The notes beneath the pieces are model-generated. The model searched no databases, was not told the origin of the DNA, and saw nothing but the letters and a program-made list of their open reading frames with translations. Below, in pieces: positions 13,910-29,546 of a stretch of DNA of 32,000 nt. Source of the stretch: Methanocaldococcus jannaschii DSM 2661 (GTDB lineage Archaea; AGJL01; Methanococci; Methanococcales; Methanocaldococcaceae); assembly GCF_000091665.1 (NCBI RefSeq), contig NC_000909.1:1546838-1578837 (forward strand), read 5' to 3'. The number at the start of each line of letters is the position of its first letter. Position 1 is the stretch's first letter. The position numbers were made by a program, and so were the translations under genes.

Positions 13910-14780
13910 ATGAAGGCAGATTTGCACATACACACAAAATATTCTGGAATTGGTAAATTTTGGAAACTTAAATTCCCTGATTCTGTTGAAGAGCCAAGAA
14001 ATATATTGAAAGTAGCTAAGAAAAAAGGCATTGAGGTTGTAGCAATAACTGACCATAATACAATTAGGGGAGGGGTTGAGACAAAAAAATTGGAGAAAGA
14101 GTTTGGAGTTGAAGTTGTTATAGGTAGCGAGATTATGACTACCGAAGGGGAAATAATTGGTTTATTTTTAAATGAAGATATACCTAAAGGTTTATCTCCA
14201 GAGGAAACTATAGAAAAAATTAAAGAACAAGGAGGATTAGCTATAGCTCCCCATCCCTACAGCCCCATCTGTAAAGCACTTGGAGACCGAATATTTGACT
14301 TAGATTTGGATGGAGTTGAGGTTTTTAATGCCTACCATAGGGATGGAATAGTTAATAATATAGCATTAAATAAGGTTATAAAGGAACTACCACAAAAAGC
14401 CTTTTGCATTTATTGGAGGGAGTGATGCTCACATAGCGAGGATGGTAGGGAATGCCTATACATTATTTGAGGGAAATTCAGCTGATGATTTGTATAAGGC
14501 AATAGTTAAAAAAAGAACGACTTATGAAGGAAAGCCAACACCTTTGTATCAAGCAATATTATGGAGTTATAAGGTTGTCTATACGTCAGAAAAGAAGTTA
14601 ATAAAATCTTTAATTTTTAGGATAGGAGATAATACAATTGATTCAATAAAACTTTATAAAAAGATTTTAGGAGTTTTTGGAGGATTTATTTATATATTAA
14701 CTCCCCTTCCAATAGTTTCCGGATTTTTAGGTAATTATTACCTTAAAAAGAAAGCAAAGGAAAAAATGAAAGAAGTTTAA
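13910..14780 (+). pseudogene. PHP-domain (polymerase/histidinol-phosphatase-like) metal-dependent phosphoesterase, interrupted by a frameshift
   Basis: The N-terminal sequence is MKADLHIHTKYSG and ITDHNT is present. ORF1 stops at 14425. The frame of ORF2 is open from 14382 and reads ..KKPFAFIGGSDAHIARMVGNAYT, the missing PHP motif. The switch must lie at or near the A5 run at 14394-14398. Confidence 0.65.
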
Positions 14781-14803
14781 TAGTTTTTTGCAAAAAACTA
14801 TTA
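14778..14803. promoter_or_regulatory. 26-bp perfect palindrome TAATAGTTTTTTGCAAAAAACTATTA between two genes
   Basis: It is perfectly self-complementary by inspection. It includes the TAA stop of the upstream gene and ends 10 nt before the next ATG. The related core TTTTGCAAAAAAC recurs at 15835-15847. Confidence 0.4.
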
Positions 14804-14813
14804 GTTTGAGAAC

Positions 14814-15539
14814 ATGATGATGGCATTGCAGATATTTATAAAGATACTTCCAATAATGTTTTTTGGAATTCTTTTAGCAAATCTTATGTGTCATTTAAAT
14901 ATCTTATACAAACTTCAAAAATATATAAAAAATAAATACTTCCCAATAATTGCTGTCTTTTTTGTTAGTTCAACATCAGGTAGCTTTTTATTAAAAAATT
15001 TATTAAAAAAAGGTGAAATTTCAGAAGAAAATCTTTTGCCAATTTACTTTTTAGGGATGTTTGTATTTGGAATCCACATAATTTTATTTTATGCTATACC
15101 AATGGCTACAAGTTTGGGTTGGTATGTTGGAGGCATCTATGTGCTAATAAAATTTTTGGTAACATGCAATTATTTGATTATAAGTGTTTTAATGCTTAAA
15201 AAAAGGAAATACAATATTGATATTGAATTTAAATCTAAGTCAGAAGGTTTATATGGAGCTATAAGAGATACGTTTAAGCAGTATTTTAGAGTTTTAACAT
15301 CATTTGTCCCATCTGTTTTGATAATAACTTATCTTATTGAGCATGGTTTATTGGATATTGTTGAGGATTTTGCTGGTTCTTTATTAAATGCTTTAAATTT
15401 ATCTCCTACTATTTTAGTTATAGTGCTTACAGGGTTAGCTACAATTTCAGGGGCTATAGGTATTGCATCTGGACTTTTAGATGAAAATATACTGTCTCCA
15501 AATGAAGTTCTCTTTTCTTTATTTCTCGCAGGTTTTTAA
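14814..15539 (+). CDS. Polytopic integral membrane protein (possibly nucleoside-recognition/Gate-domain-like); likely continues to 15691 after a frameshift
   Basis: It has six or more hydrophobic helices. After the stop, the +2 frame stays open for 51 hydrophobic codons (LNRVVLYLRKYLPIQLSIFGKIGAKLATLHLIVYEISFLIVIVVWYLFFIV*). A T5 run at 15533-15537 is a candidate shift site. Confidence 0.55.
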   Translation: MMMALQIFIKILPIMFFGILLANLMCHLNILYKLQKYIKNKYFPIIAVFFVSSTSGSFLLKNLLKKGEISEENLLPIYFLGMFVFGIHIILFYAIPMATSLGWYVGGIYVLIKFLVTCNYLIISVLMLKKRKYNIDIEFKSKSEGLYGAIRDTFKQYFRVLTSFVPSVLIITYLIEHGLLDIVEDFAGSLLNALNLSPTILVIVLTGLATISGAIGIASGLLDENILSPNEVLFSLFLAGF

Positions 15540-15701
15540 ATAGAGTTGTTCTTTATTTGAGAAAGTATTTACCAATACAGCTCTCAATATTTGGAAAAAT
15601 CGGGGCAAAGTTAGCTACTTTACATTTAATTGTTTATGAGATATCTTTTTTAATTGTAATAGTTGTTTGGTATCTCTTTTTTATTGTTTAAAGTTTATTT
15701 A

Positions 15702-15926: not shown

Positions 15927-16244
15927 ATGAGAATTTCTCCACTAATAGCAGGGTTGATAGGTGGTTTCACTGCTGCAATATTGCAAGCACTGTTTAAAGT
16001 GTTCCCTCCACCAGCTTATGGTATCTGTATAGCATGTCACACAAGGGATTTAGTAAATTGGATTATTAATCATTTATTTGGGACTACATTAGGAATGGCA
16101 CTAGTTTCAAAAGCTTTTCCTGTTTTAACTGTTGTTGGTATATTTATTGGGGCTTTAATAACTACTTTTATATATAAAGAGACTGAGTTAAAGCAAACTC
16201 ACAGTCCAGTTTATTGGTTTCATATTAGGAATTTTAGTTATTAA
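15927..16244 (+). CDS. YedE/YeeE-family (selenium/sulfur transport-associated) membrane protein, truncated
   Basis: The N-terminal TM helix is followed by PAYGICIACHTRD. This resembles the conserved (G)xCxxCxxRD loop of YedE-type proteins. It is only 105 aa. A second frame open from 16192 to 16371 continues with a TM-like segment (IGFILGILVINFWPFG..). Confidence 0.55.
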   Translation: MRISPLIAGLIGGFTAAILQALFKVFPPPAYGICIACHTRDLVNWIINHLFGTTLGMALVSKAFPVLTVVGIFIGALITTFIYKETELKQTHSPVYWFHIRNFSY

Positions 16245-16375: not shown

Positions 16376-17425
16376 ATGGAAAGAGGTAATGAAAAAATAA
16401 AACTAACTGAATTAGTTAAACTCCACGGATGAGCTTGCAAACTGCCCAGCACCGAGTTAGAGTTTTTAGTTAAAGGAATAGTTACTGATGATGACTTATT
16501 GGACAAAAATATCTTGGTTGGTTTAGGAGATGATGCATCAATAATTAAGAGGAATGGGTTAGTTATAGCAAAGACAGTTGATGTCTTTACACCAATAGTT
16601 GATGACCCATACATACAGGGAAAAATAGCAGCTTGCAACTCAACAAGCGACATCTATGCTATGGGACTATTGGATATAGTAGGAGTTTTAGCAATTGTTG
16701 GTATTCCAGAGAAGCTTCCAATACACGTAGTTAGAGAGATGTTAAAGGGCTTTCAAGACTTCTGCAGAGAGAACAAAACAACAATAGTTGGTGGTCATAC
16801 AATACTAAATCCATGGCCCTTAATTGGAGGAGCAGTTACTGGTGTTGGAAGAGAGGAGGAGGTTTTAACAAAGGCTGGAGTTAAGGTAGGAGATGTTTTA
16901 ATATTAACAAAACCATTAGGAACTCAAACAGCGATGGCGTTATCAAGAATCCCAGAGGAGTTTAAGGATTTAATTAGCATAACTGAAGAAGAAAGAGACT
17001 ACATCATAAATAAGGCAATAGAGATAATGACTACATCAAACAGATATGCATTAAAAGCTCTAAGAAAGGCTGAAGAAAGAGTTGGAGATAAAATAGCAAA
17101 TGCTTTAACTGACATAACTGGATTTGGAATATTGGGGCATTCAAATGAAATGGCTAAGAATAGCAATGTTTTAATAGAAATAAATTTACTGCCTTGTATA
17201 AAAAGGACTCCAGAGTTAAGCAGATTATTTGGACATGCTTTATTGGATGGTTATGGTGCAGAAACTGCTGGTGGCTTATTAATATCAGCAAAAGAAGAAT
17301 ATAAAGATAATTTAATTGATGAGTTGGAAAAAGCTAAATGCTATGCTTTTGAAGTTGGAAGAGTTGTGAAAAAAGGTGAAGGTAAAGCAGTTTTAAGTAA
17401 GGATGTTAAAGTTATTGAAATTTAA
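16376..17425 (+). CDS. selD: Selenide, water dikinase (selenophosphate synthetase) with in-frame UGA = selenocysteine at codon 19
   Basis: SD AGGTGA (16366-16371) precedes the ATG at 16376. The translation is MERGNEKIKLTELVKLHG-U(16430-16432)-ACKLPSTELEFLVKG.. and runs in frame into the track ORF (16499..17425). U aligns with the catalytic Cys/Sec of the SelD glycine-rich N-terminal loop. A SECIS lies in the 3' UTR. Confidence 0.9.
16439..16459 (+). repeat. 5' arm of a 21-nt perfect long-range inverted repeat (inside selD, 7 nt after the UGA)
   Basis: AAACTGCCCAGCACCGAGTTA is the exact reverse complement of 17447-17467. Confidence 0.9.
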
Positions 17426-17446
17426 TATCAAACATATATATGCTAT

Positions 17447-17467
17447 TAACTCGGTGCTGGGCAGTTT
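17447..17467 (+). repeat. 3' arm of the 21-nt long-range inverted repeat (selD 3' UTR, 15 nt before the SECIS)
   Basis: TAACTCGGTGCTGGGCAGTTT is the exact reverse complement of 16439-16459. Confidence 0.9.
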
Positions 17468-17481
17468 TTATAACGTTCTTA

Positions 17482-17514
17482 CGATGTGCCGAACCCTTTA
17501 AGGGAGGCACATCG
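17482..17514 (+). promoter_or_regulatory. Archaeal-type SECIS element in the selD 3' UTR
   Basis: The sequence is CGATGTGCC-GAA-CCC-TTTAA-GGG-A-GGCACATCG. It forms a 9-bp GC-rich lower stem, an asymmetric GAA/A internal loop, a 3-bp upper stem and a small apical loop. It starts 57 nt after the stop codon. Confidence 0.85.
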
Positions 17515-17528
17515 AAATCTTTGATATA

Positions 17529-17540
17529 TTTTTATTTTTT
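17529..17540 (+). terminator. Oligo-T tract, probable selD transcription terminator
   Basis: TTTTTATTTTTT lies directly after the SECIS. Archaeal termination typically occurs at oligo-T runs. Confidence 0.4.
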
Positions 17541-17556: not shown

Positions 17557-17669
17557 TATAGTTCTTTTTAAAATATTTTGTAATAACTAAGGCACTGATG
17601 AACTCCTTCCATTAGGAAGGGAGTTCAAACTTAATTAATAAACTTTATTAACATTTGAAAAGAACTATA
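17557..17669. repeat. MITE-like element, family E, copy E2
   Basis: It has perfect 12-bp TIRs TATAGTTCTTTT and AAAAGAACTATA. The central hairpin GAACTCCTTCC-ATTA-GGAAGGGAGTTC (17600-17626) is preceded by TGATGA. Blocks are shared with E1 (inverted) and E3. Confidence 0.7.
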
Positions 17670-23536: not shown

Positions 23537-24119
23537 GTTAAAATCAGACCTCTTGGAGGATGGAAATGCTGTAAGCACATCTGGACTAGAAAAGTCAGAA
23601 TTTTTAACCTAGTTAAAATCAGACCTCTTGGAGGATGGAAATGTTTTTATTATCTTAATTTTTTTTCTTAAAATCAGACCGTTAAAATCAGACCTCTTGG
23701 AGGATGGAAACATAAGCACTTTTTTAGCTCTTTTACTTCATTTTCTGTTAAAATCAGACCTCTTGGAGGATGGAAATTTTTTGGTGGGGAATATGGAAAT
23801 TGACAATAACACAATAAGTTAAAATCAGACCTCTTGGAGGATGGAAACGAAATAAACCAATGTTTAACTTGTGGCTGTTTTAAGAAGTTAAAATCAGACC
23901 TCTTGGAGGATGGAAATGAAAATAAATAAACCCTCCAATGCCAAACCAAAATTTTTGCAATTAAAATAAGACCGATTCGGTATGGAAACTGGAACAATCC
24001 GTTTAAAACTTCATACTCTTCTTTTGTGGTTAAAATCAGACCGATTCGGAATGGAAACACGAAATACCATTTTCAGATACGATTTTTTAGTTAAACCGAA
24101 ATCCTTGAAAAATAGAAAT
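23537..24119 (+). CRISPR. CRISPR array 1: 8 clear repeats plus 1 degenerate terminal repeat, with two repeat types
   Basis: Repeats start at 23537, 23612, 23681, 23747, 23818 and 23887 (31 nt, GTTAAAATCAGACCTCTTGGAGGATGGAAAT/C). Repeats at 23960 and 24029 are 30 nt (..AGACCGATTCGG.ATGGAAAC). A degenerate repeat starts at 24090. Spacers are 31-44 nt and unique. The 3' ATGGAAA(T/C) tag and leader position give + orientation. Confidence 0.95.
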
Positions 24120-28681: not shown

Positions 28682-29546
28682 ATTAAAATAAGACCGTTTC
28701 GGAATGGAAATCGTAAATGGTTCGTCTTTATTGACTAAAAACACAGTTTATTAAAATAAGACCGTTTCGGAATGGAAATTGGGAAATATAAGTCAGAGAT
28801 TGATGCTTTGGCAGATTAAAATAAGACCGTTTCGGAATGGAAATAAAAGATGTTGAGAGATGCATTTATTCATAAGAAATTTATTAGATTAAAATAAGAC
28901 CGTTTCGGAATGGAAATTCCTTATGAAGTATTTAACTATGACGACATGAAGTTATTAAAATAAGACCGTTTCGGAATGGAAATAAACTACCGTCTGCACA
29001 AACAGCTACCATTAATCTTAATATTAAAATAAGACCGTTTCGGAATGGAAATGATATTTCAGCAGATGTTTATCTGCTTCATTTAATTGAACCTCATTAA
29101 AATAAGACCGTTTCGGAATGGAAATTGGAGGGATTTTCATTTTTTAAATTTGATAATGTATTTGAAGAATTAAAATAAGACCGTTTCGGAATGGAAATAG
29201 TTTTCACCCCAAAAAACACTATTGTCCTTTCTTATTAAAATAAGACCGTTTCGGAATGGAAATTTTAATTAAGCTTAGATAATCTTGAATATTTTTTCTT
29301 GTAAAATTAAAATCAGACCGTTTCGGAATGGAAATACACATATTGATAAGGTAGAAGTATCAGTAAATGGACATTTATTAAAATAAGACCGTTTCGGAAT
29401 GGAAATCGCAATCATTAATAAATCCCAATACATCGATACAAAAAATTAAAATAAGACCGTTTCGGAATGGAAATAATTGTAATATAATCATCGAAACTCC
29501 AACCATAATCCCTATAATTAAAATCAGACCAATTCGGGATAAAACA
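28682..29546 (+). CRISPR. CRISPR array 2: 12 clear repeats plus 1 degenerate terminal repeat
   Basis: The 30-nt repeat is ATTAAAATAAGACCGTTTCGGAATGGAAAT. Starts are at 28682, 28750, 28815, 28888, 28954, 29023, 29096, 29169, 29234, 29306 (A9C variant), 29377 and 29445. A degenerate repeat starts at 29517 (ATTAAAATCAGACCAATTCGGGATAAAACA). Spacers are 35-43 nt and unique. Confidence 0.95.

Follow-up and report, generated by a model that had tools for sequence, protein, structure and literature searches.

In the 32,000-nt stretch of the Methanocaldococcus jannaschii DSM 2661 genome analysed here (NC_000909.1, positions 1,546,838 to 1,578,837; hereafter the window, with positions counted from its first nucleotide), the selenophosphate synthetase gene selD carries two complementary 21-nt arms, one just downstream of its selenocysteine (Sec) UGA codon and the other in the 3′ untranslated region (3′ UTR), next to the selenocysteine insertion sequence (SECIS). 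Comparison of selD loci strongly supports the view that the two arms pair as a long-range helix within the mRNA and that this helix is under selection, because the strands covary, synonymous change in the coding strand is suppressed, the coding strand is spelled in rare codons, and a sister clade has switched to another pairing partner. We infer, with a probability of roughly 60%, that the helix keeps the 3′ UTR SECIS close to the ribosome as it decodes the UGA, to the benefit of Sec insertion.

The selD inverted repeat of M. jannaschii

The selD open reading frame (ORF; 16376–17425, on the plus strand, as are all features of this locus) is translated through an in-frame Sec codon into a protein with Pfam AIRS and AIRS_C domains, and the SelD fragment matches 'selenium donor protein - Methanococcus jannaschii' (P0002) at 100% identity. 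The Sec UGA (16430–16432) was located from sequence and translation within an HG-U-ACK motif, which is found at the same position in every Methanococcales selD locus examined. It is followed by a 6-nt spacer, GCUUGC (16433–16438), and then by the 5′ strand of the helix, AAACTGCCCAGCACCGAGTTA (16439–16459), which codes for K-L-P-S-T-E-L. Downstream of the TAA stop codon (17423–17425) come a 21-nt AU-rich segment (17426–17446), the 3′ strand of the helix, TAACTCGGTGCTGGGCAGTTT (17447–17467), and a 14-nt linker (17468–17481) that leads to the SECIS hairpin. A first-pass annotation of this DNA had reported an exact 21-nt reverse complement between the UGA region and the 3′ UTR, and the match was found again at 16439–16459 and 17447–17467, with a G+C count of 11/21 in place of the 12/21 given there. 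The two arms form a perfect inverted repeat, 987 nt apart, in which the match stops abruptly at both ends, and the 15-nt core of the arm has only these two occurrences in the window.

The SECIS hairpin (17482–17514) is of the archaeal type, with two G+C-clamped stems (basal stem CGAUGUGCC/GGCACAUCG and apical stem CCC/GGG), an asymmetric GAA_A internal loop, a UUUAA terminal loop and a location in the UTR of a gene with an in-frame UGA; its predicted fold is identical at 37, 65 and 85°C. The same architecture is present in the selD 3′ UTR of 23 loci, and neither the window nor the flanking sequence of any selD locus yielded a second SECIS. Rfam gave no family over either arm or the SECIS, and no SECIS model. 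Two oligo-T runs are located 3′ of the SECIS (T5 at 17529–17533 and T6 at 17535–17540), and oligo-T sequences have a role in archaeal transcription termination, so these runs are the likely terminator and both helix strands and the SECIS are expected to be on one transcript. A further T5 run (17465–17469), which shares the final three bases of the 3′ arm, lies upstream of the SECIS, where it could cause some premature termination; most other species have no T5 run there.

Covariation and constraint in Methanocaldococcaceae

We collected selD loci from a genome collection, from metagenomes and from contigs encoding homologues, and the comparison covers selD as distinct from the other Methanocaldococcus selenoprotein genes (hdrA, fwuB, fruA, vhuD and vhuU), of which hdrA and fwuB likewise have a long distance between UGA and SECIS. 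Methanocaldococcaceae-like loci, among them that of Methanotorris formicicus (L054), encode SelD proteins with 73–91% identity to that of the window. The pairing is present in every such locus that covers both the post-UGA region and the 3′ UTR (16 loci), with perfect complementarity over 15–23 bp, whereas shuffled sequences average about 7 bp and never exceed 12 bp. At least six haplotypes of the coding arm were found, each with a matching UTR strand: the jannaschii type AAACTGCCCAGCACCGAGTTA, AACTTCCCAGCACCGAATT (L006 and L027), AACTTCCCAGCACCGATT (L054), TGCCCAGCACCGAGCTT (L059), CTCCCCAGTACTGAGCTT (L008) and CTCCCCAGTGCTGAGCTT (L055). As the first-pass annotation had envisaged, the UTR strand at other loci tracks changes in the coding strand, and it does so for non-synonymous changes as well (E to D in L054, T to A in L055).

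When 16 distinct Methanocaldococcaceae sequences are aligned without gaps (A1), the helix comprises 23 pairs, of which seven vary on both sides; the 15-bp core is paired in 100% of the sequences and contains six covarying pairs. As the loci are related by descent, counts of sequences in this alignment overstate the number of independent events, for which the distinct haplotypes and the covarying positions are the fairer measure. The covariation score was reached by none of 500 shuffles, and sliding the partner by 1–3 columns reduced pairing from 90% to 25–45%. G.U pairs are confined to the helix ends, with none in the cores (U.G at pair 34/64 in L024, and position 37/61 in nine sequences). The only conserved blocks in the aligned 3′ UTRs are the UTR arm and the SECIS, the flanks of the arm not being conserved.

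The position of the helix relative to the UGA varies little, with a spacer of 6–10 nt in all 24 helix-bearing loci, including those with an in-ORF partner described below. The linker between helix and SECIS ranges from 14 to 67 nt in loci with a 3′ UTR partner and is not conserved. The other Methanocaldococcus loci lack the AU-rich segment at 17426–17446, and their 3′ strand starts between stop-2 and stop+8, and in most other Methanocaldococcaceae this strand begins in or at the stop codon, the UAA of which pairs with a UUA Leu codon.

Selection on the coding arm was also apparent from a synonymous scan of 11 Methanocaldococcus selD genes (mean nucleotide identity 84%, 325 windows), in which the K-L-P-S-T-E-L window has the lowest rate of synonymous differences of all 325 (0.052, versus a mean of 0.347). 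The arm holds the G+C-richest 15-mer of selD and uses four consecutive rare G/C-ending codons, CTG, CCC, AGC and ACC, which in M. jannaschii represent 2.5% of Leu, 5.6% of Pro, 13.7% of Ser and 10.7% of Thr codons, respectively, with a joint probability of 3.8e-6. When base composition is taken into account, 1.4e-3 exact inverted repeats of at least 21 nt are expected in the window, and 1.0e-4 with both arms inside 1.2 kb, the latter in agreement with the figure of 1e-4 that had been estimated earlier. The chance of finding the complement of this G+C-rich 21-mer anywhere in the selD transcript is approximately 4e-11, and inverted repeats of at least 12 nt in 100 dinucleotide shuffles reached a maximum of 7 G+C, versus 11 observed.

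A different pairing partner in Methanothermococcus-like loci

Methanothermococcus-like selD loci have no UTR arm, and their SECIS follows closely behind the stop codon. Full-mRNA folds predict that the same post-UGA site (UGA+12) pairs in these loci with a segment inside the ORF, from stop-54 to stop-46, which encodes S/G-V/I-G-K and lies 41–67 nt from the SECIS. The resulting helix is 10–17 bp long (for example CTTCCCAACACC with GGTGTTGGGAAG). An alignment of this ORF type (A2) has a 12-bp core that is essentially always paired and three covarying pairs, with G.U pairs in a short flanking extension (33/65 and 35/63). Compensatory changes were found in L009 and L010, with AAC to AAT accompanied by GTT to ATT (V to I), and in L011–L013, with ACC to GCC accompanied by GGT to GGC. 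In L029 the helix is lengthened to 17 bp and the C-terminal peptide has changed from SGVGK to FSVGK. Thus two clades hold one 5′ site paired with different 3′ partners, each located tens of nucleotides from the SECIS.

Predicted folding and growth temperature

The structures of complete mRNAs reported here are minimum-energy folds, and growth temperatures were assigned from taxon names. The M. jannaschii duplex has a predicted free energy of -39.6 kcal/mol at 37°C and -13.8 kcal/mol at 85°C, with an RNAduplex z-score of -10.1 for the helix, and all 21 bp are present together with the SECIS in the minimum-energy fold of the full 1.19-kb mRNA at 37, 65 and 85°C. In the 12 Methanocaldococcaceae mRNAs folded at 85°C, the helix is always the longest one, and the arm is predicted to pair distantly, not locally. 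Duplexes measure 15–23 bp in Methanocaldococcaceae and 10–17 bp in Methanothermococcus-like loci, whereas M. maripaludis, M. voltae and L064 do not rise above chance. The predicted duplex energies of the UTR type at 85°C (-10.7 to -19.6 kcal/mol) and of the ORF type at 65°C (-11.7 to -20.5 kcal/mol) are similar, and helix strength appears to be tuned such that the free energy at the presumed growth temperature stays roughly the same.

Proposed function and alternative explanations

With the UGA in the ribosomal A site, a helix that begins 6–10 nt past this codon would stand at the mRNA entrance of the ribosome. In M. jannaschii the first helix pair would fall at approximately +13 from the first P-site nucleotide, which is the position of the mRNA entrance and the spacing used by stimulators of frameshifting and readthrough. 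The base pair nearest to the UGA is 16439–17467, at the same end where the SECIS linker exits, and since the helix is antiparallel, the SECIS would emerge at its UGA-proximal end. The ORF of about 1 kb would be looped out, the base of the SECIS would come to lie about 20 single-stranded nt from the UGA in M. jannaschii, and the SECIS with any factor bound to it would be tethered to the decoding ribosome at a distance of a few tens of nucleotides. In addition, the ribosome may be held briefly on the UGA by the helix. Tethering and pausing would each tip the balance from termination towards Sec insertion in SelD, on which all Sec synthesis depends for its selenium, and the bacterial layout, with a structure right after the UGA, would in effect be rebuilt from two distant pieces. 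The complementarity, the selection at the nucleotide level, the position of the helix and its thermodynamic plausibility were obtained here directly; a higher efficiency of Sec insertion, by either route, is what they would suggest. The first-pass annotation had proposed that the pairing tethers the SECIS with SelB, or gates access of the ribosome to the UGA. Selected pairing within one mRNA is upheld by the covariation, the constraint on the coding arm and the partner switch, and tethering fits the geometry and may be its purpose.

Several observations weigh against a role in promoting Sec insertion. In mesophilic Methanococcus (M. voltae L062, the M. maripaludis-cluster locus L065, and L064), no pairing above chance was detected (RNAduplex z-scores of about 0), and L064 and L065 contain a bulged remnant, TTCCA-x-ACACC with GGTGTTGGAA, against the same GVG codons. 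Since the model organism M. maripaludis thus holds at most a bulged remnant, the helix may have been overlooked so far. In mesophilic M. maripaludis, the one setting in which the fdhA-type design has been tested, engineered complementary flanks left reporter activity unchanged and reduced mRNA three-fold, so that a benefit appears only per mRNA, and is two-fold (PMC11881835). Work from the same laboratory showed that Sec insertion tolerates widely differing distances between UGA and SECIS without pairing (PMC9622424), and therefore the helix is not essential in general. Finally, each translating ribosome has to melt the helix.

The main rival to this proposal is that the helix is a real RNA structure used for control, acting either on mRNA half-life, as a substrate for or a protection from RNase, or as a selenium- or Sec-tRNA-dependent gate to passage beyond the UGA by which selD regulates itself. 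The covariation evidence is the same for both explanations, and the three-fold reduction of mRNA at unchanged total activity by the fdhA-type flanks would fit control. Furthermore, as the true stop codon is usually part of the 3′ strand, the state of the helix would be coupled to ribosome traffic over the whole ORF. However, the sequence holds nothing that senses selenium, and a pure stability element needs neither a site 6–10 nt past the UGA in two clades with different 3′ partners nor adjacency to the SECIS, and we consider a role in control unlikely. Alternatively, the 3′ arm may act in trans, as a small RNA derived from the 3′ UTR (arm and SECIS) that pairs with the 5′ arms of other selD transcripts, and since pairing rules are identical in cis and in trans, covariation does not separate the two. 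The arm starts inside the stop codon in most species without an evident promoter of its own, the Methanothermococcus partner lies within the ORF, the region matches no known small RNA family, and pairing in cis is kinetically favoured, all of which makes action in trans very unlikely.

Perfect inverted repeats that bracket almost the whole gene could also act at the DNA level, by mediating inversion of selD, as had been suggested in the first-pass annotation, or by being homogenised through gene conversion, with no role for RNA; a perfect Watson-Crick core fits such concerted evolution as well. Inversion is not supported by the 16/16 arm-bearing loci, in all of which the orientation is intact, nor by the neighbouring genes (PHP, YjeF/Carb_kinase, purC, purS and a HAD phosphatase), among which there is no recombinase. 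The arms are short (15–23 bp), and in Methanothermococcus the partner belongs to the coding sequence, in a different frame. Rare G/C codons and a length that scales with temperature would serve the stability of an RNA, whereas recombination gives no reason to expect them, and the G.U pairs at the helix ends point the same way, being a supportive but weak discriminator between RNA and DNA. A DNA-level role is even less probable than action in trans. From one genome alone, it would have been possible that the match arose by chance or, as also proposed earlier, is what a rearrangement left behind to decay, but nothing further speaks for this. The number of such matches expected by chance is 1e-4 to 1e-9. 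The at least six haplotypes that stay paired through compensatory changes, the conservation of the UTR arm between unconserved flanks, and the lowest synonymous variation of the gene in the coding arm refute this explanation, and the match of the selD arms is neither chance nor relic.

Relation to known recoding structures

The closest parallel to a selD helix that would hold the SECIS near the UGA is the 5′ UTR SECIS of fdhA1, both flanks of which are complementary to the ORF and would bring the SECIS to a position 43 nt 3′ of the UGA (Peiter et al. 2025, PMC11881835). Their conservation extends across Methanococcales, with greater length in thermophiles (9 and 16 nt in M. jannaschii; Table S3 of PMC11881835). 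The sps/selD SECIS served as an isolated element in that study, which reported pairing for fdhA1 only (PMC11881835). The two cases share a SECIS-adjacent sequence that pairs with the ORF 3′ of the UGA (the selD 3′ strand is 14 nt 5′ of the SECIS), presence in Methanococcales with longer duplexes in thermophilic clades, and a proposed role in placing the SECIS near the UGA. Unlike that of fdhA1, the selD SECIS (17482–17514) is in the 3′ UTR, 3′ of the stop codon; only one of its flanks pairs, as one continuous duplex of 15–23 bp with a spacer of 6–10 nt; the helix usually takes in the stop codon; and the sister clade uses an in-ORF partner. The principle is therefore shared with fdhA1, and what differs is the 3′ UTR SECIS, the single continuous arm, the short spacer, the overlap with the stop codon and the switch of partner between clades. 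The earlier statement that the pairing is undescribed held for the searchable literature, in which the closely related idea for fdhA was published in 2025 (PMC11881835). No description of the selD helix was found in the open full-text literature.

A possible pairing of the second SECIS flank was examined with RNAduplex in 18 loci, with the 45 nt 3′ of the SECIS as one strand and everything between the start codon and UGA+8 as the other. The loci gave no consistent evidence of second-flank pairing near the UGA, with no significance in 15/18 loci and scattered best sites, and the isolated matches in L001, L060 and L008 are each at a different position. In L001, a Methanocaldococcus metagenome-assembled genome, a 9-bp pairing (z-score -3.9) is possible between CCTCAACCGTA, about 28 nt past the SECIS, and CATGGTTGAGC, a segment that includes the Sec UGA itself; this pairing is not conserved in other loci. 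A 26-nt A-rich/T-rich pair with 77% complementarity (I2) was set aside as a second flank and is treated as compositional, because the second-flank test gave no consistent signal.

Selenocysteine redefinition elements (SRE) of eukaryotic selenoprotein mRNAs were reportedly described by Howard et al. in 2005. Among selD and SPS2 genes, local hairpins after the UGA are known as bacterial SECIS (bSECIS) and as SRE in eukaryotes, with none reported for archaea (Mariotti et al. 2015, PMC4561486), and both the stem and the spacer of the SRE matter for suppression of termination (PMC8704476). The selD helix resembles the SRE in starting 6 nt 3′ of the UGA (6–10 nt in the 24 loci, the range in which SRE and other downstream stimulators of recoding act), and it resembles both the SRE of SPS2 and the bSECIS of selD in occupying a homologous place in the same gene family. 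In contrast to these local hairpins, the second strand of the selD helix is 987 nt away, beside the SECIS, and whereas the loop of the bSECIS binds SelB directly, nothing suggests such binding for the selD helix. Long-distance base pairing is also required for -1 frameshifting in barley yellow dwarf virus (BYDV) and for stop-codon readthrough in tombusvirids, both plant RNA viruses. As in selD, an element at the recoding site pairs with a distant 3′ UTR element of the same RNA, located kilobases away in the viruses. The viral pairings differ in usually being loop-to-bulge contacts of 5–7 nt that activate a local stem-loop, and in serving frameshifting or readthrough that is thought to coordinate translation with replication.

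selD and SPS2 genes of other lineages

The selD loci of Asgard archaea, Bathyarchaeota and Thorarchaeota showed no above-chance complementarity to the post-UGA region. All ten Jord-/Freyarchaeia-like Asgard selD loci (L014, L016–L019, L022, L036, L037, L039 and L051; for example L017, 3267–3296) have a conserved in-frame TAA 255 nt past the Sec UGA. This codon has GCA codons on both sides and sits in an insertion of about 30 nt relative to M. jannaschii SelD (SVNLxDLHA and the stop, flanked by NDVY and AIGATDVV). The insertion contains a hairpin, GTAAATC-TACTT-GATTTAC, and its 3′ half is complementary to CATGTAAAT just past the Sec UGA. A mini-intron, a stop-hop and a readthrough site are possible readings of the in-frame TAA; the words 'intron', 'TAA' and 'in-frame' do not occur in the text of the 2024 paper on Asgard selenoproteomes.

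Eukaryote-type SPS2 transcripts with the motif KLKG-U-GCKVPQ were found on metagenome and metatranscriptome contigs, and in three of these (L044, L046 and L047) the post-UGA segment is complementary to the 3′ UTR. The match in L044, the protein of which aligns to human SPS1 with an E-value of 1e-118, is 16 bp long (GTCCCCCAAGTCGAAT with ATTCGACTTGGGGGAC), with the 5′ arm at UGA+12 and the partner at stop+44. The match in L046 is 11 bp (UGA+12, partner at stop+28), and that in L047 is 11 bp including one G.U pair (UGA+11, partner at stop+5). The 3′ strands follow the differences between the 5′ strands of the three transcripts, with only L044 being significant on its own. No complementarity between post-UGA region and 3′ UTR was detected in the eukaryote-type L043 and L045, and Rfam gave no SECIS matches in the eukaryote-like contigs. 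Three versions of such pairing were thus seen, with a 3′ UTR partner in hyperthermophilic Methanocaldococcaceae, an in-ORF partner in Methanothermococcus and a 3′ UTR partner in some microbial-eukaryote SPS2. Pairing of the segment 6–10 nt past the Sec UGA with SECIS-proximal sequence may be a general and repeatedly evolved design of selD and SPS2, a 'split' equivalent of the bacterial SECIS or the eukaryotic SRE, and we offer this generalisation tentatively, as possible and somewhat unlikely.

Other features of the window

Immediately upstream of selD are small ORFs encoding membrane proteins (15927–16244, and also 14814–15539 and 15557–15691), of which the 105-aa ORF at 15927–16244 has a weak match to Sulf_transp (YeeE/YedE-like; E 9e-4, under the Pfam cut-off). 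YedE-type proteins are linked to selenium metabolism, and these ORFs may form a functional neighbourhood with selD. Downstream, the intergenic region between the oligo-T runs of selD and purC contains a strong hairpin, GAACTCCTTCC-ATTA-GGAAGGGAGTTC (17600–17626), which is unique in the window and has no Rfam family match. The longest exact inverted repeat of the window is a perfect 26-nt AT-rich palindrome, TAATAGTTTTTTGCAAAAAACTATTA (14778–14803), located between two plus-strand ORFs. Arrays of clustered regularly interspaced short palindromic repeats (CRISPR) are present at 23537–24058 and 28682–29474, with two repeat types that match Rfam CRISPR-DR39 (minus strand) and CRISPR-DR13 (plus strand) and that adjoin each other in the locus at 23537–24058.

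Implications for archaeal Sec decoding

No protein is known to bind the archaeal SECIS, and archaeal SelB itself fails to do so in vitro (PMC8211752). The selD helix bears on the question of how an archaeal 3′ UTR SECIS reaches a ribosome at a UGA up to 1 kb upstream, and extends the single precedent of fdhA to a SECIS in the 3′ UTR. It indicates selection for a physical coupling of the UGA site to the SECIS region in thermophiles, which was re-invented with another partner in the sister clade. If the split design were to prove general, proximity of the SECIS to the UGA-decoding ribosome would be a selected parameter of Sec decoding outside bacteria, and its importance would be greatest for the enzyme that acts as gatekeeper of the Sec pathway.

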